A stretch of 35,577 nt of DNA from an uncultured Candidatus Saccharibacteria bacterium. Lineage in GTDB: Bacteria > Patescibacteriota > Minisyncoccia > Phycocordibacterales > PALSA-1337. The position numbers were made by a program, and so were the translations under genes. Below are positions 5,415 to 33,796 of this stretch, in pieces. The notes beneath the pieces are model-generated. The model saw nothing but the letters and a program-made list of their open reading frames with translations. It made no database searches and was not told the DNA's origin. The stretch covers positions 1-35,577 of the forward strand of contig CAZZPF010000009.1 in the NCBI GenBank assembly GCA_964655515.1, read 5' to 3'. Positions within the stretch are counted from its first letter, which is position 1, and the number at the start of each line of letters is the position of its first letter.

Positions 5415-6612
5415 TATTTATTTTTACTAATAAATCCTCAATTTTAATCCTTTGCTGTTTTCCACTGTCTCTATCCCGAACAGTCACCCCATTCCCCTTT
5501 TCAATAGTTTCAAAATCAACGGTTACGCAAAAAGGTGTACCTATTTCATCTTGTCTGCGATAGCGCTTGCCAATATTTCCATTATCATCAAAGGCAATTG
5601 CAGAAATTTCTTTTTTTAACATTTTATAAATTTCTTGAGCTTTTTCTACGAGTTGAGGTTTATTTTTAAGTAAAGGAAAGACCGCAACTTTTACCGGAGC
5701 AATTCTCGGTAAAAGTTTCAGATAGACTCTTTGCTCACCGTCTATTTCATCTTCGGTGTAAGCATCAGATAAAACTGCCAAAACTATTCTTTCAACACCG
5801 AAAGAGGGTTCAATACAGTGCGGAATAAATTTTTCTTTTGTTTCTTCATCATAATATGAAAGATCAACTTTGCTTGCTTCAGAATGTTGTTTTAGATCAA
5901 AATCTGTACGATATGCCAGACCATATAATTCTTTTCTGCCAAAAGGAAAATCAAATTCAAAATCAATGGTTCTTTTTGAATAATGCGCTCGTTCATTATC
6001 TAGAACTTCTAGTTGGTGTATATTTTTAAGATGAATTCCAATGTCTATAATGAAAGCTTCAGTTTCCTTTACAAAATGTTTGAAGGTTTTTTCCCAATCC
6101 TTAGGTTTTATGAAATATTCAATTTCCATCTGTTCAAATTCTCTAGTACGAAAAATAAAATCTCTGGGTGCGATTTCATTTCTAAATGCTTTGCCAATTT
6201 GTGCAAGACCAAAGGGAAGTTTTGCACCTGTATTATCTAGAATATTTTTAAAATTAACAAACATTCCCTGGGCTGTTTCTGGACGAAGATATGAAATTGA
6301 GTTTTCATCTTCAATAACACCGACATTGGTCTTAAACATCATGTTAAATTTCTTTCCATCTACAAGCGGATCTGAAAAATCAGAAATGTGTCCACTGGCC
6401 TTCCATACATTCTGATTCATTATAATGGCCGTATCTAGACCATATATATCATCACGATCTGTTACAAAACGCTTCCACCATATTTGCTTTATATTATTTT
6501 TTAAAGTTAATCCATGATGAACAAAGTCCCACGCCCCTGCAAGACCTCCGTAGATTTCGGAGCCTTGGAAAATAAAACTCCGTCTTTTGCAAAGAGAGAT
6601 TATTTTTTCCAT
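5401..6612 (-). CDS. glyQS: glycine--tRNA ligase (dimeric class II type)
   Basis: MEKIISLCKRRSFIFQGSEIYGGLAGAWDF is a typical GlyRS N-terminus. FRNEIAPRDFIFRTREFEQMEIEYF is class II motif 2. I chose the start at the ATG at 6612 (M22 of the track ORF). Confidence 0.85.
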   Translation of the reverse strand: MEKIISLCKRRSFIFQGSEIYGGLAGAWDFVHHGLTLKNNIKQIWWKRFVTDRDDIYGLDTAIIMNQNVWKASGHISDFSDPLVDGKKFNMMFKTNVGVIEDENSISYLRPETAQGMFVNFKNILDNTGAKLPFGLAQIGKAFRNEIAPRDFIFRTREFEQMEIEYFIKPKDWEKTFKHFVKETEAFIIDIGIHLKNIHQLEVLDNERAHYSKRTIDFEFDFPFGRKELYGLAYRTDFDLKQHSEASKVDLSYYDEETKEKFIPHCIEPSFGVERIVLAVLSDAYTEDEIDGEQRVYLKLLPRIAPVKVAVFPLLKNKPQLVEKAQEIYKMLKKEISAIAFDDNGNIGKRYRRQDEIGTPFCVTVDFETIEKGNGVTVRDRDSGKQQRIKIEDLLVKINNEIQ

Positions 6613-6649
6613 TTTTTTTTCGTCTTTTAGTATCATAAATATAAATAAA

Positions 6650-8584
6650 TTACTGTACCACCTTCTCATCGCCATCTTTGAAGACCTGATCTGTGCTAAA
6701 CCGTGTTGTAAGTTGTCCTAAATTACTGTTCAATGTCTGTCCTGTAAAATCGTCTTGCGCTGTAAGACTTGCTTGATTAACCAAAACTGGAATTTGACCA
6801 ACTTGAGTTATGCTTGGTTTTAGTGAAATCTGAAAAGCTACTTCCTTTCTTCGTGAATTATTGAGTGTATATGTATCCAGATTACCAATTTTCCATGTGA
6901 TAACTCCATCAACATTATTATAAGTAATATCTTCAGTAGTAGGACTTATTTTACCGACCCATTTTACATACGGAGGTAGACTTGCATGAACTAGAGCATT
7001 TGAAACTGTACTGGAAGTATTATTAACTGTCCAAACGACTGTATATGTAGTCTGTTGTTCAGCTTTAGGTGGAATAGGGCCAGTATTTTCAAATGGACCA
7101 GTTCCTCGTAGTACTTGACCGCCAAGAGCAATATCTGAAGCAATTTTTATGTGTCTATTTGCGCTTGAAGTAATATTCTCTGGAACATCAGTTTCTGAAT
7201 TTCTTTTACCTTTAACACCGACAATTAGAGAAACATCTGGGTTCGTAATGGGTTTCAAGGAAGTGCCGAGATCTCTTGGTGTAAAGCTGAAACTTACGCG
7301 TCCATTATCACCCGCAGCAATATTTGCGAGCTCTTTTGTGGTAATTTGATTCCAAACAATTTCATTATTGACAGAATCAAAAACACCCTGGTCAGGAGAT
7401 ACAGAAACTTTATCAAGGGCAGTACCAGAAAGCTTGACATGAATTTCTCCATCAATAACTGATGTTGGTAAATTATTGAAATAAGAGATTTCAACTTTTA
7501 TAGGATGATTAAATGTAGCGATATATTCTTGATTATCAGTATCGCCTTCAAGTGAAACACCAACACTGATAAATGGCTTTTTTATAATGATTTCCTGTGT
7601 GCTTGAAATATATTCGGTACCTATGACTTTTTCATTACGAATACTTTGGGCTCCAGTACTAAAACGAAAAACTCTAGTCTCATCGTCTTGACCTTCTAGT
7701 TTGCCTTTAATTTTAATAATTTTCTTTCCACCGGGGGGTATATCACCTATTTTCCATGTAGCATTGTCTGAAAGTGGCTTTATATCAGAAGATATAAAGG
7801 TAAATCCGAATGGATAAATGGTTTTTAGTAAGAGGTTTTTTATTACTTCTTTTGAATTTGAGGTCATTGTCAATGCCATTTCAAATTCTTGATCAGAATT
7901 AACTTCCTTAAATGAAGATATTGATAGGGTTAGTGGTGATGAACTGATAAGTAAATCAAAAGTTTTTTCTTTCTGAAAAATAGCGTTAGAACCTTTAACT
8001 CTGTATTCAACACTTACTTTTATTAATTTTTTACTATTTTCTTCTCCATAAACCACAACCTTAATTGTTTTCTGACCAATTCCCCCAGGATCAATATCGG
8101 GAATTAATTCTCTAAATGTTTTTAGTTCTTTTGTGGTATCTAAAGAATCAGTAGTACCTGCAGGAAAATCTACTGAAAGATCTACTGTTTCAAGTTTTAT
8201 ATTATTTTTATTTGATACCTGCACATCAAATGATACTGGCTCACCTCCAGCCACTGATACAGGGCCATTGATAGTTATATCAATATTGTTTGCAGAAACT
8301 ATGTTGGATCCATTAAATACAAGAAGAGCACCGAGACCAAGCGCTAGAATAAAAAATATAATAGATCCTATAAGAAGTTTAGTAAAAAATGACATGGAAT
8401 GATCTTCATAACGATTATTCAAATCAACATCCTCAGGTAGTTTTTCATGATGCTCCCAGTCAGTCTTCACTTCTATTTCCTGCGGTTCGAATCTAAGTCT
8501 TCGCTTGGTGCGAATGTCTGGTGCTGTTCGCGAGTAAAGGGACTTCTTAAGTTCTTCAATCCTGCTTTTTTCTTCGGGAGTCAT
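6650..8584 (-). CDS. membrane-anchored surface protein with repeated beta-sandwich-like modules, function unknown
   Basis: It has a charged N-terminal region of about 65 aa, then a single TM helix (FFTKLLIGSIIFFILALGLGALLVF). A long Ser/Thr/Asn/Val-rich region follows, with recurring strand-like patterns such as V..G..V.F.V.V.N. I recognise no catalytic motif. Confidence 0.45.
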   Translation of the reverse strand: MTPEEKSRIEELKKSLYSRTAPDIRTKRRLRFEPQEIEVKTDWEHHEKLPEDVDLNNRYEDHSMSFFTKLLIGSIIFFILALGLGALLVFNGSNIVSANNIDITINGPVSVAGGEPVSFDVQVSNKNNIKLETVDLSVDFPAGTTDSLDTTKELKTFRELIPDIDPGGIGQKTIKVVVYGEENSKKLIKVSVEYRVKGSNAIFQKEKTFDLLISSSPLTLSISSFKEVNSDQEFEMALTMTSNSKEVIKNLLLKTIYPFGFTFISSDIKPLSDNATWKIGDIPPGGKKIIKIKGKLEGQDDETRVFRFSTGAQSIRNEKVIGTEYISSTQEIIIKKPFISVGVSLEGDTDNQEYIATFNHPIKVEISYFNNLPTSVIDGEIHVKLSGTALDKVSVSPDQGVFDSVNNEIVWNQITTKELANIAAGDNGRVSFSFTPRDLGTSLKPITNPDVSLIVGVKGKRNSETDVPENITSSANRHIKIASDIALGGQVLRGTGPFENTGPIPPKAEQQTTYTVVWTVNNTSSTVSNALVHASLPPYVKWVGKISPTTEDITYNNVDGVITWKIGNLDTYTLNNSRRKEVAFQISLKPSITQVGQIPVLVNQASLTAQDDFTGQTLNSNLGQLTTRFSTDQVFKDGDEKVVQ

Positions 8585-26084: not shown

Positions 26085-26283
26085 TTTTTAATTACTCATC
26101 TTTATTTATCTTATAAAAATAATGTAACCACTCAATTTTTTTATTTGTTGTCATGTTTTTATTTTTGGGGGTCAGTATCCAAACCTTATTATAAGTATAC
26201 TTGAAGATAAGGAATATATGGAAGCTTTGTATGGGAAGTATTTGGGTATTAAATCTGAAATGGAACTAGTAACACACAAAGTC

Positions 26284-27261
26284 TTATTTTTCTAATTTTA
26301 AATGTTTTTTGAGTTTGTAAGTATTTCCATGTCCAAGTAATCCACGATAAGAATTTACAGTTTCTTTTTTGGGATAACCTCTTAATTTTCTTATTATTTT
26401 TCTTTTTGTAGTTGTACGAATCTGTCTATGATATGGAAAGTGGACCCAGCCCAGAAAATCTACGCCCGAATCGTAGGTCTTTATGTATACTTTGTGCTCA
26501 TGGAGTGTGAGGTGTAATTTCTCATTCAGAAAAACGTGGAGCTTCGGCAGAATGTCTTCTAGATATTTTCTATCGTCAGACAGGATCGCAAAATCATCCG
26601 CATAGCGAAGATAATATTTTACTCGCAGTTCCTGTTTGAGGTACATGTCAAATTCGTGCATGTACACATTCACGAGAAGCTGAGACGTGAGATTGCCAAG
26701 TGGCAGTCCGACACCAGGAGCAGTTGTGTGAAAGCTCGAGACCACTTGATTAATGAGCCAGCGAATATCTGGATCGGCAATATGACGCTCGAGCACTTTC
26801 ATAAGGACCTCATGATCAACGCTTGCAAAGAATTTCCTGATGTCACACTTAAGCACGAAGCATGTGCGTGTGTAATTCTTGGACATCTTGCGGGCAAAAT
26901 CTCTGAAGCGGTCGAGAGCTCGATGTGTTCCCTTATGCTTTCGGCATGAATACGAATCGTGAATAAAGCGGGTGTGGAAATGCCAGTAAAGCTCTTTATA
27001 AATTAAATGATGCAGCACCCTATCACGCACAGTTGCTTTGTGAATGCTGCGAGGCTTTGGATCGGAAATATTAAACGCTGAGTACAGACCGTGAACATAA
27101 GTCTTATTTTTGAGGTCTGTATATAGGCTAGCGATGTTGATTGTGAGCTCGGCTTGAAATTTTATGACATCCTTTTTGTGCTTTTTGCCGCGTAGAAATC
27201 TCTCCCACGTCAGGAGTAAATTTTCGATTGTGATGATAGAATTGTAGGTATGAGTAAACAT
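26284..27261 (-). CDS. DGR-type reverse transcriptase
   Basis: RT motifs 1-7 are present: PRSIHKATVRDRVLHH, SYSCRKHKGTHRAL, VLKCDIRKFFASVDH, GLPLGNLTSQLLVNVYM (the DGR-diagnostic GxxxSQ), YLRYADDFAIL, LHLTLHEHKV and GVDFLGW. I chose the start at the ATG at 27261 (MFTHTYNSI...). The upstream part of the track ORF is antisense to avd. Confidence 0.88.
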   Translation of the reverse strand: MFTHTYNSIITIENLLLTWERFLRGKKHKKDVIKFQAELTINIASLYTDLKNKTYVHGLYSAFNISDPKPRSIHKATVRDRVLHHLIYKELYWHFHTRFIHDSYSCRKHKGTHRALDRFRDFARKMSKNYTRTCFVLKCDIRKFFASVDHEVLMKVLERHIADPDIRWLINQVVSSFHTTAPGVGLPLGNLTSQLLVNVYMHEFDMYLKQELRVKYYLRYADDFAILSDDRKYLEDILPKLHVFLNEKLHLTLHEHKVYIKTYDSGVDFLGWVHFPYHRQIRTTTKRKIIRKLRGYPKKETVNSYRGLLGHGNTYKLKKHLKLEK

Positions 27262-27287
27262 AACGAGCAGAATAAACCAGTAAGTAA

Positions 27288-27296
27288 CCCCCCCCC
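27288..27296. repeat. C9 (G9 on the minus strand) homopolymer tract in the RT/avd divergent intergenic region
   Basis: I read it directly as ...taagtaaCCCCCCCCCacga... It lies 27 nt upstream of the RT ATG and 19 nt upstream of the avd GTG. Confidence 0.9.
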
Positions 27297-27314
27297 ACGA
27301 TTCCACTCGTTCTT

Positions 27315-27656
27315 GTGCGTGCGAAAGAAGCGTACCAATTGTGGCATAGCTCAATCGTAAATTTAAAGCGTGTCGACCGCTACACGATCGGTGCAAAAGT
27401 TGACGATATTTTCCTCTCACTCCTCGAGCTCATATTCAGAGCATGCTTTGCTTATGACAAATTCGAGAAGCTGTCTCTGGTATCTCAGGCTATTGCAAAA
27501 TCCGACCTGCTCAAATTCTTTCTGCAATTGAGCTGGGAACATAAAGTCATTGACCATAAAAGTTACGGTGCACTGATTCTTCTTTTAGATGAAGTCGGTC
27601 GCATGCTTGGAGGTTGGAAGAAAAACCTTGGAGACAAAACTCCCACTAACAAATAG
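27315..27656 (+). CDS. avd: Avd-like four-helix-bundle protein (DGR accessory variability determinant family)
   Basis: The 113-aa protein has a GTG start. RYTIGAKVDDIFLSLLELIFRACFA...LLKFFLQLSWEHKVIDHKSYGALILLLDEVGRMLGGWKK matches the four-helix-bundle (23S rRNA IVS/Avd) family pattern. It lies between the TR and the RT but on the opposite strand. Confidence 0.7.
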   Translation: MRAKEAYQLWHSSIVNLKRVDRYTIGAKVDDIFLSLLELIFRACFAYDKFEKLSLVSQAIAKSDLLKFFLQLSWEHKVIDHKSYGALILLLDEVGRMLGGWKKNLGDKTPTNK

Positions 27657-27673
27657 TGGGAGAAATCATTTGA

Positions 27674-27795
27674 GTTGCAGAAGCAGAGGAAGGCATTGTC
27701 GTCGTTCCAGACATTCTCGAAGTTGCCAAGGTTGAACTTGAAGTGACCGTCCGAGTTGCAGTTCACATTCGGCACCCTGTGGTTGCCGTCGGCAT
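27674..27795 (-). repeat. DGR template repeat (TR)
   Basis: The 122 nt align without gaps to 28142-28263 at an offset of 468. There are 12 mismatches, and every one is a plus-strand T in the TR, which is an A on the sense strand. In the VR frame the TR is rich in AAC (Asn) codons. Confidence 0.9.
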
Positions 27796-28030
27796 ACCTC
27801 ATCAGCAATGTACGACGCGCCGTCTATTTCACCAAGAAGAGCACCGGCTCCCCTTTGAATTTTATTTCGAGTCTTATACTCGCTGGCACATCGCACCGAC
27901 TTATTTGATTTTTTCATGAAAGGCAGCACTCGTCCGCAAGGCTTACCCGACAGACCGCTCGCTGATTCCTTAAACGAGAATTCGATGACATGAAACCGTG
28001 GCCACATGCGCTATCTAGGTTCCGAACAAT

Positions 28031-28038
28031 ATTATACA
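28031..28038 (-). promoter_or_regulatory. candidate -10 element (TG-TATAAT) for a separate TR-containing transcript
   Basis: The minus strand reads tttTGTATAATatt directly after the target-gene hairpin. The -35 region (tcaatt) is weak. Confidence 0.3.
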
Positions 28039-28049
28039 AAATTTAGATA

Positions 28050-28084
28050 GAAAAATTGAGCCCTCGCAGTGAAGCAAGGGCTCA
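28050..28084 (-). terminator. hairpin downstream of the VR and target stop (terminator and/or DGR-associated stem-loop)
   Basis: tgagccct (28057-28064) pairs with agggctca (28077-28084) around a 12-nt loop. On the minus strand it is followed by atttttc. It lies about 50 nt after the stop codon. Confidence 0.5.
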
Positions 28085-28132
28085 AAGGATCTAAGATCCG
28101 AAGAACTAACTGAGTGTCCAAGTTTCCAAGGA

Positions 28133-28822
28133 CTACTCGACGTCGCAGAAGCAGAGGAAGGCATCGTCGTCGATCCAGACAATCCCGAAGCGGCCAAGGT
28201 TGAACTCGAAGCGACCGTCCGAGTGGCAGTCCACAGTCGGCACCCTGTGGTTGCCGTCGGCATCTGCCCAGAGACGATCCTTTTCATCGAAGGAAGCATA
28301 CCACTTGCCTTTCGGCAGTTGGTCGCGCTTCTGATCGAAGACGAGGGACGCGCCTTGTGCACCGGTGTGAATGGCCTTTTGAGTTGCCAAGAACGCCATA
28401 CGCTCTTCCGAGGTAGTGGTCCCACCGACGACTTGCTTGAACGCGCGAACGCGAAGCTTGTCGCCAGGCTTCAGGACCCGAGTCGGATTCGGGAAGTTCT
28501 TGTCGGTGATCTCGTCGTTGTAGTAATAGAACTTTTTACGGTTCTGCTTACCGAACGTCGTGAACCGCTTGTCGTGCACGTAGTTATCGGGCACCGTGAT
28601 GATGCCGAGGTCCACGAGCAGAGCGAACTTTTCGGTGGGTTCCGCAGGAGCTGTGGACTCCGGCTTCTTCCAATCGCCGAAACGTGCTTCCCGATCATCC
28701 GGAGAGAGGTTGTTGAACCGCTCCAACTGGCCGAGGGTGATCTGACCGCTTCGCACCTTTTGAAGGGTGTCGATTTGCAAACCAGCTAATTTGGCCGCAT
28801 CTGCGTCGATGATAGTGTTCAT
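28133..28822 (-). CDS. DGR target (variable) protein, 229 aa, no recognisable signal peptide
   Basis: A good RBS (AAGGAAAGGA) lies 6 nt upstream of the ATG. The gene is high in GC. The C-terminal 41 codons are the VR, and the protein ends ...AFLCFCDVE. Confidence 0.85.
   Translation of the reverse strand: MNTIIDADAAKLAGLQIDTLQKVRSGQITLGQLERFNNLSPDDREARFGDWKKPESTAPAEPTEKFALLVDLGIITVPDNYVHDKRFTTFGKQNRKKFYYYNDEITDKNFPNPTRVLKPGDKLRVRAFKQVVGGTTTSEERMAFLATQKAIHTGAQGASLVFDQKRDQLPKGKWYASFDEKDRLWADADGNHRVPTVDCHSDGRFEFNLGRFGIVWIDDDAFLCFCDVE
28142..28263 (-). repeat. DGR variable repeat (VR)
   Basis: This is the counterpart of the TR. It ends 2 codons before the stop codon. Eleven amino-acid positions differ from the TR-encoded sequence. 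Confidence 0.9.
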
Positions 28823-28894
28823 CGTTTGTCCTTTCCTTACAATGTGCTTTCGGAAATCTGCCGAATCAGTCGCAAGGGCATCTTGCTACTGTAA

Positions 28895-28923
28895 ATTATA
28901 CACCCTACATCATATTTTGTCAA
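28895..28923 (-). promoter_or_regulatory. consensus sigma70-type promoter of the DGR target gene
   Basis: The minus strand reads TTGACA (28923-28918), a 17-nt spacer, then TATAAT (28900-28895). It lies about 70 nt upstream of the target ATG. Confidence 0.6.
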
Positions 28924-28939
28924 TAGCTAGGTTAGAGCC

Positions 28940-28962
28940 AAAAATAGCCCTTGAAATAAGGG
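28940..28962 (-). terminator. small hairpin plus T-tract downstream of tRNA-His
   Basis: The minus strand reads CCCTTatttcAAGGGctattttt. The stem is only 5 bp. Confidence 0.35.
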
Positions 28963-28985
28963 TATTTTGAAGAAAAATATCGCAG

Positions 28986-29057
28986 GGTGACTACTGGGAG
29001 TTGAACCCAGACTAAAAGCTCCACAAGCTTCTGTGCTACCGCTACACCATAGCCACC
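28986..29057 (-). tRNA. tRNA-His (anticodon GTG) with encoded G-1
   Basis: The sequence is G-GTGGCTA...TAGTCAC-C. The anticodon stem GAAGC/GCTTT encloses the loop TTGTGGA. The T-loop is GGTTCAACTCC. No CCA is encoded. Confidence 0.9.
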
Positions 29058-29105
29058 ATATTTCACCTATTTGTATTAAGATGATAGCATCTTTATATCA
29101 GATTT

Positions 29106-31791: not shown

Positions 31792-32295
31792 TTATTTAAT
31801 AGTAAGTACTGATATATCAAGGGAAAGATTCCATTTGTGATCTCCGGAAGAAACAGTGTGAACATTGTTTATGGAAAGACCATAAGAAAGATTCTCAATA
31901 AGTATAAGGGCTTGCATTATATTTGACCATGAGCCCACAGCGTTTATATGGGCACCAACATAACCAGTTTCGGTATTTATGGATGAAAGACTTATGTTAG
32001 TTTTTGAATCACTGCTGATTTTTTCTATTTTTTCAATAAAATCAACCACTTTGTCCTCATTTATAAAAAAGGAGGTTATTTTTGATCTGTCAAGAATAGT
32101 ATTATTATAAATTTTCGTAAGTTCATCTTCGTGTTGTCTCTTTTCACTTTCAGTATTAATATCATTTATGAATTTGGAAGAATTTTCAGCTTGAGTGATT
32201 ATGGTCTTGTACATAAAAACATATCCTATTATAGAAAATACTGTGGCACTGATTGCAAAAATAATTAAAATGTAATGTCGTGAATTGATTTTCAT
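31792..32295 (-). CDS. PilO-like pilus assembly membrane protein
   Basis: It has an N-terminal TM helix, then a coiled-coil-like region, then a beta-rich C-terminal domain. It is the third gene after the pilM and pilN homologues. Confidence 0.4.
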   Translation of the reverse strand: MKINSRHYILIIFAISATVFSIIGYVFMYKTIITQAENSSKFINDINTESEKRQHEDELTKIYNNTILDRSKITSFFINEDKVVDFIEKIEKISSDSKTNISLSSINTETGYVGAHINAVGSWSNIMQALILIENLSYGLSINNVHTVSSGDHKWNLSLDISVLTIK

Positions 32296-32296
32296 A

Positions 32297-32848
32297 TTAT
32301 TCTACAAATGTTATGCGTATAGCAAAAGAAATATTCTTGGGTTTGGTAAGATCAGAAACTGGTAATTCAACCTTTGTAATCCTTTGATCGTCTTCAAGTT
32401 TTTTCTTAAATAAAAGAAGAGATTCACGGCTTATGGCTTTTCCTTGGACTATAGCTTCAGTGGATGAAGTGGCAGACCCTGATTTTGAAAGTTGGAAAGA
32501 AGTTAGGGTAACTTGAGCTGGGCGAAGTTTAGTAATTTCTGAAATTGTCTCACTAAATCTAGATATATTTTCATTAGCTTTGAGTTTTTTTATTATTTGA
32601 TAACTTTCTTTTAGTTCTTTTGAGATATTTTTTATATCCCGCGCTTCCCTGTTTTTCTCTAGTGTTTGAATTTTTTGAAAAGAGCTTTGTCCTTGTGAAT
32701 ATGAAAAAATGTATGCTGGAAAAAGTGATAAGATTCCGATTATTACTGCAATTGAAATGAAAAAGAGAAACATAACAAAGACTCGTGTTCTATACTCTCT
32801 TTTAAGAGATCTCATTTCCTTTTCTGGTAATAATGTGTAATGAATCAT
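32297..32848 (-). CDS. pilN: PilN-like fimbrial assembly protein
   Basis: The short N-terminus YTLLPEKE resembles the PilN INLLP motif. A single TM helix and a coiled region follow. It lies immediately downstream of pilM. Confidence 0.5.
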   Translation of the reverse strand: MIHYTLLPEKEMRSLKREYRTRVFVMFLFFISIAVIIGILSLFPAYIFSYSQGQSSFQKIQTLEKNREARDIKNISKELKESYQIIKKLKANENISRFSETISEITKLRPAQVTLTSFQLSKSGSATSSTEAIVQGKAISRESLLLFKKKLEDDQRITKVELPVSDLTKPKNISFAIRITFVE

Positions 32849-32860
32849 ATTTGTAAATAA

Positions 32861-33796
32861 TTATGGCAGTGCCAAACCAGCAGCAATAGCATAATCCAAT
32901 GAATCTTCAAATGATATTGGTGGAATGTAACTATCACTTGAAAAAGAATTCTGCCAAACTTTTGCAATTTCAACAGGAATCTTTGAATCTGGTGAGATAT
33001 GAGAACTTAGATCTTCAGTCAATGCTTCATGGCCAGAAATTACTATGCGACTTATTATTTTACCTTCTCCGTGTTCTCGCCAATATGTATAGACTTTTTC
33101 CACTTCCTTTTTTAGAAAAGCAATTTCTGATGCCTTTCCCCAGGCAATAGTTGAAGTGAAACAAACTACACCACCACATACTATATATAAGCCAGTTTTT
33201 TTATTCATAATGTGCACAATCATTTGTGTTTCAGTAGAATCGCTAGACACTATCGCTCTGGCAATGGCTTTTGCTTGAATTTCAAAAGAAATAACATTGA
33301 GTCCAGAATCTTTAAGAACTTTTAGATAATTCTTTACAAGATCGTATGGCGCTACAGAAACACTGGCATATGGTCTATCCCTGTTTGCTTCTGGAATAAG
33401 ATCAAAAAAGAAAATAGCATCTAATGGTGAAAGGGGTACATTTTCTTCCAATTTAAATTCTATGTTTTGCCTAATTTGGTCTTCATTGGCATTAGGAACT
33501 TCAGTTTTAAATAAATACATTCTTTCTTCAGGAAGAGATGCTTTTACAGTTGAAATTTTTAATTCTTTAACCAAGGTTGAAATTATTTTTGTAAGTTCGG
33601 CTGTATTTTTTATATTACCAGAATCTACAATTCCTGGATTTAGAATTTTTGTGCCATAACGATGAATAGTATAACCTCGTCTGCCTTCTTTATATTCTAT
33701 ACACCTTACGGCATCATCAGAAATATCAAGACCAGCATATGGAATATTTAAGAATTTTGGGGGAGGAAATAATTTGAAAAATGTCTTAGTAAACAT
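32861..33796 (-). CDS. pilM: type IV pilus assembly protein PilM (actin-like ATPase fold)
   Basis: GLDISDDAVRCIEY is a phosphate-1-like motif. The 311-aa size and the downstream PilN/O-like genes support the call. Confidence 0.65.
   Translation of the reverse strand: MFTKTFFKLFPPPKFLNIPYAGLDISDDAVRCIEYKEGRRGYTIHRYGTKILNPGIVDSGNIKNTAELTKIISTLVKELKISTVKASLPEERMYLFKTEVPNANEDQIRQNIEFKLEENVPLSPLDAIFFFDLIPEANRDRPYASVSVAPYDLVKNYLKVLKDSGLNVISFEIQAKAIARAIVSSDSTETQMIVHIMNKKTGLYIVCGGVVCFTSTIAWGKASEIAFLKKEVEKVYTYWREHGEGKIISRIVISGHEALTEDLSSHISPDSKIPVEIAKVWQNSFSSDSYIPPISFEDSLDYAIAAGLALP

Follow-up and report, generated by a model that had tools for sequence, protein, structure and literature searches.

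A self-contained diversity-generating retroelement cassette of Patescibacteria and its variable protein with a probable, highly divergent lectin-like fold

Diversity-generating retroelements (DGRs) diversify a target gene through a reverse transcriptase (RT) and a template repeat (TR). We analyzed a 35,577-nt window (the whole stretch of DNA examined) of contig CAZZPF010000009.1 (assembly GCA_964655515.1), which contains a DGR target gene, the accessory gene avd, and an RT gene. The target (variable protein) gene is an open reading frame (ORF) on the reverse strand (28133 to 28822) that encodes 229 amino acids (aa) followed by a stop codon, and the N terminus of its product reads MNTIIDADAAKLAGLQ. 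Codons 187 to 227 form the variable repeat (VR; 28142 to 28263, reverse strand), a 122-nt copy of the TR at 27674 to 27795 of the same strand. The two copies constitute a direct repeat with 90% identity, and all 12 mismatches between them are located at adenines of the TR, which includes 31 adenines, 10 AAY codons, and one AAG codon. This distribution of the differences identifies the downstream copy as the TR and the 3' end of the gene as the VR; the gene is thus a genuine DGR target. The RT gene (26284 to 27261, reverse strand) matches RVT_1 (E = 1.2e-24) and a group-II-intron-like RT model (8e-41, under the family cut-off). Its probable start is M54 of a longer ORF extending to 27420, as judged by the sequence MFTHTYNS, which is conserved in a related cassette (L001). 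The avd gene (27315 to 27656) lies on the forward strand and matches Pfam bAvd (1.4e-12) and NCBIfam DivGenRetAVD (4.9e-14, under the curated cut-off of 80 bits).

The VR/TR mismatches change 11 codons (196, 198, 200, 204, 206, 211, 213, 214, 217, 220, and 227), which agrees with the 11 variable residues counted in an earlier note on this DNA. The last of these codons is probably a different case: codon 227 is AAC in the TR and GAC in the VR, and since Asp is kept at this position in at least 90% of relatives (entropy of 0.51 bits), a fixed difference between the initiation of mutagenic homology (IMH) and IMH* sequences is more likely than a product of mutagenesis. The scaffold that the earlier note had written around the variable residues (HRVP.V.C.SDG.F.FNLG.F..VW.DD.AFLCFC) is exact, and the variable positions alternate with the invariant hydrophobic residues V197, F205, F207, L209, F212, and W216. 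VR/TR homology stops at codon 227, two codons ahead of the target stop, again as had been reported; a VR that reaches the stop codon is no oddity but the usual arrangement in DGRs (Roux et al. 2021; PMC8144416). The TR has 19 codons that are able to change the encoded amino acid, corresponding to about 10^17.6 possible proteins (10^17-18).

Marks of diversification are present across the family to which the target belongs. The columns with the highest entropy in the family alignment are those of the TR adenine codons (mean of 2.48 versus 0.68 bits; Mann-Whitney p = 1.4e-6), and 338 of 438 TR/VR mismatches in 23 related cassettes from other species are located at TR adenines. This family is large. 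At E <=1e-3, 608 homologs were detected in a 90%-clustered database, all of them unnamed or annotated as "hypothetical" and none with a Pfam domain, and a profile search of 50%-identity representatives recovered at least 1,238 clusters, including 336 at E <=1e-30; for many of the 1,238 clusters, the match is confined to residues ~58 to 229. Among GTDB species representatives we found 78 loci, almost all from Patescibacteria (Paceibacteria-type lineages, e.g., Taylor-, Kaiser-, Nomura-, Lloyd-, and Jorgensenbacteria, and assemblies labeled Saccharibacteria). Three loci belong to metagenome-assembled genomes (MAGs) labeled Thermodesulfovibrionales (L036), Bdellovibrionales (L055), and Gammaproteobacteria (L066, with a match that is just 27% identical), and could represent mis-binning or a transfer to hosts beyond Patescibacteria. 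The suggestion of a distinct variable-protein family holds at the sequence level: a Pfam search at E <=1 with 141 diverse members returned no Lectin_C, FGE-sulfatase (PF03781), or DUF1566 (PF07603) match for any of the 141 and no recurring family of any kind.

We interpret the gene, with a probability of about 60% for the interpretation as a whole, as the variable-protein gene of a DGR cassette that is self-contained; its product would have a divergent lectin-like fold and a site of action that is most likely cytoplasmic or reached by a non-classical route. By analogy with characterized DGRs, the TR RNA would be copied by an RT-Avd complex with random misincorporation opposite adenines, and the resulting cDNA would be substituted for the 3'-terminal VR of the target gene. 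An exchangeable module at the N terminus may serve to tether the binding domain to a partner.

This modular organization is predicted by AlphaFold2, which gave a mean predicted local distance difference test (pLDDT) score of 88.2 for the full-length protein (83-sequence alignment) and of 93.4, with a predicted template modeling (TM) score of 0.88, for the C-terminal domain alone (41 sequences). In the models, residues 1 to 50 (28673 to 28822, reverse strand) form a three-helix module (helices at residues 7 to 24, 30 to 37, and 41 to 48) with the motif AAKLAGLQID, residues 51 to 61 (28640 to 28672) form a Pro/Glu-rich linker predicted to be disordered (pLDDT <50), and residues 62 to 229 (28136 to 28639) form an alpha/beta domain of 168 aa, the conserved core of the family. 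The order of secondary-structure elements in this domain (beta-alpha-beta-alpha-alpha-beta-beta-beta-beta) is compatible with a long-form C-type-lectin-like domain (CTLD), and Foldseek searches pointed in the same direction. CTLDs accounted for the majority of the top 50 PDB matches of the full-length model and of the top 15 matches of the domain-only model, and the top matches included NKR-P1A/B, human NKR-P1, Mincle, LOX-1, langerin, CD23, a tetranectin-derived binder, and intimin. The CTLD alignments span 126 to 146 columns (targets of 112 to 141 aa), which is close to an entire CTLD, with weak scores (E of 0.08 to 1, target-normalized TM score of 0.35 to 0.47, and root mean square deviation of about 6.5 to 10 A). 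In BFVD, the top matches were herpesvirus and poxvirus C-type lectins (best E of 0.034; probability of 0.96). These results run counter to the view that the variable C terminus does not resemble a lectin fold, since the best matches of two models in two libraries are nearly all CTLDs, albeit with weak scores. The narrower statement that the VR is unlike the Mtd/FGE-sulfatase type stands: none of Mtd, TvpA, FGE, AvpA, and TaqVP appeared in the top 50 Foldseek matches. The 168-aa domain probably has a very divergent C-type-lectin (CLec)-type fold outside the FGE/Mtd subclass, as judged from the models.

Sequence comparisons gave no assignment for the domain. The best Pfam match of the target was LysM (E = 0.14), NCBIfam yielded zero matches, and searches of the PDB by sequence and with the 83-sequence profile returned nothing under E = 0.07, only noise such as ribosomal protein S4 (E of ~0.1). 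The scattered Pfam matches of family members to TrkA_C, LysM, and Poly_export fall on a local "LKPGDKLRV" hairpin motif; this placement is shown by the aligned residues for LysM and the S4 match, and is our own reading for TrkA_C and Poly_export. The remark that the N-terminal 185 aa contain no recognizable domain is accordingly correct with respect to sequence matches in Pfam, NCBIfam, and the PDB, but this segment holds most of the predicted lectin-like fold.

The variable codons map to the two strands preceding the last strand of the model and to the intervening loops (196, 198, 200/204, 206/211, 213, 214, 217, 220). Ligand binding by CLec proteins takes place at the last beta-strands and loops, and the variable residues of the target are therefore likely to make up an adjustable surface for ligand binding on the modeled lectin-like scaffold. 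The last strand itself (residues 220 to 227) includes AFLCFC, which is near-invariant across the family and encoded by the 18-nt stretch GCCTTCCTCTGCTTCTGC (28145 to 28162, reverse strand), whose codons contain zero adenines. By analogy with Mtd, TvpA, and AvpA (PMC5006420), this stretch encoding an invariant last strand is a probable IMH.

Export was assessed with a Kyte-Doolittle hydropathy scan of the target and 270 relatives. A transmembrane (TM helix) segment is expected at a 19-residue mean of ~1.6. The top value for the target is 0.86, at residue 66, inside a predicted beta-strand, and the first 40 residues include charged ones and reach a maximum of only 1.04 in a 12-residue window. 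The first Cys of the protein is C199, so a lipobox is impossible, and the hydropathy-level scan detected no N-terminal hydrophobic signal, lipobox Cys, twin-arginine motif, or TM helix in the target. The description in the earlier note of a 229-aa target devoid of signal peptide, lipobox, and TM segment is thus borne out. An exported in-frame domain upstream, which the same note had considered as a possible oversight, is excluded, since the reading frame is closed by a stop 20 codons upstream of the target ATG and the intervening codons include no start. The pattern extends to the family: 268 of the 270 relatives lack an N-terminal signal or TM-like segment in the scan, the two exceptions being P0145, with a lipoprotein-like signal, and a protein with an internal hydrophobic stretch. 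A further 14 relatives have a window over the hydropathy threshold, which belongs to the first strand (a conserved element), to the VR, or to a C-terminal tail. The family also includes bare domains (~25 of 141 representatives), and each of the remaining representatives has a short, hydrophilic, helical module at its N terminus, of which about ten kinds occur. We lean toward a target that acts in the cytoplasm or uses a non-classical route, because export signals appear to be missing family-wide and members composed of the bare domain exist.

Several points weigh against this interpretation. The lipoprotein-type signal of P0145 suggests that the domain is presumably able to work extracellularly, and the absence of a signal peptide is no proof of a cytoplasmic location. 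On the structural side, all matches are weak (Foldseek E >=0.03; probability <=0.96, and at most 0.54 in the PDB; TM score <=0.47; root mean square deviation of 6.5 to 9.6 A for the top CTLD matches), and the fold assignment is not established by the usual criteria. In profile-profile comparisons with hhalign, the family matched DC-SIGN with a probability of 0.1% and an eight-sequence CTLD profile with a probability of 2.4%, neither of which is significant. This CTLD profile was validated by the recovery of 253 CTLD chains in the PDB, and the DC-SIGN sequence was verified against the PDB. Even so, in the short, non-significant alignment with the CTLD profile, RLW.D..G..VP / VW.DD of the family pairs with the W.W.DG / WND region of CTLDs, the place that is equivalent in topology.

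The leading alternative, which we regard as unlikely, is that the target is a surface-displayed or secreted adhesin of an episymbiotic candidate phyla radiation (CPR) cell, exported independently of Sec and attaching to hosts or particles. The N-terminal helical module would then be an export or anchoring adaptor, e.g., one docking onto pili or another surface structure. Characterized cellular DGR targets are mostly surface proteins (Roux et al. 2021; PMC8144416); a lipoprotein signal is fused to the domain in P0145; short, helical, interchangeable N-terminal modules are what would be expected of docking adaptors; and type IV pilus genes (PilM/N/O-like ORFs, 31792 to 33796) lie ~3 kb off in the window. 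However, those pilus genes are outside the transferred cassette and absent at other loci, and no secretion or anchoring gene is conserved beside the cassette. Also against it, ~25 of 141 members are without any N-terminal module, 268 of 270 relatives lack an N-terminal signal or TM-like segment, and no conserved Cys pair suggestive of a disulfide was found in the family.

A second alternative, which we consider improbable, concerns the fold: the C-terminal domain could be a new alpha/beta scaffold for DGR variation that is not of the lectin type, with the CTLD matches being a topological coincidence. The weak Foldseek scores given above, with every TM score <0.5, fit this possibility, as does the absence of profile-level likeness to CTLDs, FGE-sulfatase, and DUF1566. 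In addition, six CPR VR classes (UVR1-6) and 45 ungrouped VRs were assigned to no fold by Wu et al. (2018; PMC5758913). Against coincidence, CTLDs dominate the matches whichever of the two independent libraries is searched and whichever of the two separately built models is used, the aligned region takes in almost all of the CTLD, and variable strands followed by an invariant last strand encoded by the IMH are the layout of Mtd, TvpA, and AvpA. A divergent lectin-like fold therefore remains our preferred assignment for the domain, with the family representing at most a new CLec subclass.

Phage tail fibers are where DGRs were first found, and an orphan homolog (L004) lies ~5.5 kb from a large serine recombinase, but a phage or prophage receptor-binding protein like Mtd of Bordetella phage BPP-1 is very improbable here, because the cassette is a 2.6-kb unit flanked by tRNA-His, a DNA glycosylase-like gene, and membrane-protein genes, phage structural genes are absent from the window and from about 24 related loci, and BFVD yielded no phage tail protein matches above noise. 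A prophage origin was rejected for the lack of phage genes.

The cassette forms a discrete unit. Nucleotide alignment of the window with L001 (positions 5940 to 8535), located on a 600-kb contig of a different genome, delimits a shared DGR cassette at 26293 to 28886 (reverse strand) with 84% identity over 2,605 nt; there is no similarity beyond the borders, the flanking genes differ, and the GC content is 46% at the L001 locus versus 36% for the window. The borders are sharp and recur in >20 genomes, which indicates a recent horizontal transfer of the 2.6-kb cassette. The order of target, TR, inverted avd, and RT is conserved in related cassettes. We regard the cassette as self-contained, because no neighbor gene of the related loci is conserved besides RT and Avd. 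The earlier note had proposed a search for homologs next to DGR RTs in other CPR genomes. Of the 55 species-representative loci in which the C-terminal domain is intact, 24 have RT and/or Avd (23 of them with a TR), and 18 lack both genes in flanks of 3 kb or more to each side. These orphan copies (L004, L007, L008, L010, and 14 more loci) consist of a target without RT, Avd, or TR within 3 to 6 kb. They delimit a target-only module corresponding to ~28040 to 28890 of the window, which includes the promoter-proximal 65 nt, the gene, and a 12-pair hairpin 48 nt past the stop codon. The orphans may be relics, or may be diversified in trans as targets. Two loci on separate contigs of one MAG (L033 and L059) carry identical target copies with identical VRs.

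The target genes also differ in composition from their cassettes. In 22 related cassettes (L001, L009 ... L058), the GC content at third codon positions (GC3) averages 0.68 for the target versus 0.40 for RT and 0.43 for Avd, with a host-flank GC content of 0.43; for the target in the window (28136 to 28822), GC3 is 0.76 and the flanking GC content is 0.35. Simple horizontal transfer fails to explain this bias, because the co-transferred RT and Avd genes do not show it. Avoidance of adenine was rejected as the source, since third positions are poor in T as well as in A.

The N-terminal module is not restricted to this family. In other Patescibacteria, the sequence AAKLAGLQIDxLQKxRxGxxTLxxLEWFxxLS precedes at least four different C-terminal regions in fusion proteins, none of these regions being detectably similar to that of the target. 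Three of these C-terminal types, at six loci (L064, L067, L078, L080, L081, and L082), have their own adjacent TR, with 8/12, 24/24, 13/13, 14/14, 18/18, and 14/14 TR/VR mismatches at adenines; RT adjoins all six loci and Avd also adjoins four. The module is thus common to several DGR target families, as these three fused types have TRs of their own with adenine mismatches. The module-sharing proteins have no Pfam match, except for DUF5701 in one type, and when the N-terminal 59 aa were used as the query of a database search, five short proteins only (52 to 100 aa) were recovered. A resemblance to the linker repeats of ApcE was dismissed as chance: the match was weak and at the motif level (PDB profile; E = 0.0065), with no significant single stretch.

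Among described systems, the closest parallel is AvpA of Nanoarchaeota (Handa et al. 2016; PMC5006420). Both proteins are small and essentially single-domain, come from reduced, host-dependent lineages, and have a CLec-type fold (predicted only, for the present target) that escapes sequence methods. AvpA, a DGR protein for which the CLec fold is accepted, has mammalian CLEC5A and not Mtd or TvpA as its nearest structural match, and the IMH encodes its invariant beta5 strand (PMC5006420); the target is likewise predicted to be nearer to natural killer receptor-type mammalian CTLDs than to Mtd/TvpA, with a VR followed by an invariant last strand that is probably encoded by the IMH. The two differ in that there is no detectable sequence similarity between them (PDB sequence and profile searches returned no CLec or DGR protein), and the target is bacterial instead of archaeal, with an additional three-helix module at its N terminus and one more helix within the domain. 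The target also has features in common with Mtd of Bordetella phage BPP-1 and TvpA of Treponema denticola: a C-terminal VR at the gene end, a TR with AAY codons, and a lectin-like domain (predicted for the target) whose C-terminal strands and loops carry the variable residues. Mtd and TvpA are FGE-subclass CLec proteins, whereas the FGE-sulfatase Pfam family was found in 0 of 141 members of the target family, neither protein was among the top 50 structural matches, and the VR motif of the target lacks their G..W...GFR-type signature. Furthermore, Mtd is a phage tail-fiber protein and TvpA a lipoprotein, whereas the target has no export signal.

The targets of CPR "DGR clade 2" (Roux et al. 2021) and of the UVR1-6 classes (Wu et al. 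2018) resemble the present target in their Patescibacteria hosts, cellular, non-phage cassettes, the lack of TM segments, signal peptides, and recognizable domains, and a VR fold that is unassigned. Roux et al. noted that CPR targets are typically without TM or signal features and that their genuine non-membrane-bound status "remains to be established" (PMC8144416); the literature has thus already raised the possibility of a cytoplasmic target, as a question left open. Three loci related to ours (L009, L030, and L045) come from Rifle groundwater genomes (RIFCSP... records), and the CPR set of Wu et al. was drawn from groundwater CPR metagenome data of that kind (PMC5758913). The passages of the two papers drawn on here mention neither a lectin-like prediction nor the shared N-terminal module, and the family motifs were not found in the portions of the Roux et al. 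supplements drawn on here. What is new here is the probable fold, the family-wide picture of export signals, and the modular architecture. Cytoplasmic CLec targets of DGRs have been predicted in other bacteria (Doré et al. 2024; PMC10907252). The targets of Thiohalocapsa PB-PSB1, a multicellular bacterium, are similar in having DGR-diversified lectin-fold domains and a predicted cytoplasmic location (PMC10907252), but are large multidomain proteins tied to STAND NTPase or MoxR ATPase systems; ours has 229 aa with a 50-aa helical module and neither an effector domain nor a conserved partner gene.

DGR targets are common in CPR bacteria, and the published surveys leave both their fold and the side of the membrane on which they act unsettled. 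The present analysis places a large family outside Pfam coverage in a probable divergent lectin-like fold, and the model, the domain boundaries, and the candidate docking module provide handles on the question of whether hypervariable binding proteins work intracellularly in CPR bacteria. If the target is truly cytoplasmic, the picture of DGRs as tools for surface or receptor variation would need to be extended to reduced symbionts. More speculatively, and with the odds against it, Patescibacteria may carry cytoplasmic antibody-like binding proteins in which a minimal, DGR-diversified lectin-like domain is plugged into a common intracellular partner through interchangeable helical adaptors (one of them, AAKLAGLQID..., common to at least four DGR target families that look unrelated), spread as a 2.6-kb cassette with detachable targets. 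Such proteins, if they exist, could, e.g., sense phages or host-derived molecules.

The remaining elements of the locus are noncoding or regulatory. A GC-rich hairpin of 12 pairs followed by a T-run (28056 to 28085, reverse strand; terminator scan) lies 48 nt past the target stop, within the conserved target-only module whose borders recur in orphan copies, and may be the terminator of the target gene, a DGR target-recognition hairpin, or both. Its spacing is unlike that of the downstream hairpin of BPP-1. The same scan detected a second hairpin with a T-run at 27640 to 27662 (reverse strand), 12 nt past the TR, which overlaps the 3' end and stop codon of avd and resembles a bidirectional terminator. 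The strand of avd is opposite to that of the target, TR, and RT, an inversion also found in L001 and about 24 related cassettes, and a transcript reading beyond the TR would be antisense to avd. Between the target stop and the TR, ~330 nt (27666 to 28007, reverse strand; L001 6816 to 7061) are conserved and hold an ORF called as a gene (81 aa in L001). Instead of being a gene, this stretch could belong to the DGR RNA as a structured segment. An Rfam scan of positions 26100 to 29100 returned tRNA-His as the sole match and thus none in this stretch; the tRNA-His gene (28985 to 29056) adjoins the cassette in the window. A putative sigma-70-like promoter with a perfect TTGACA-17-TATAAT arrangement (28895 to 28923, reverse strand), recognized by its match to the consensus, is located 73 nt upstream of the target ATG.
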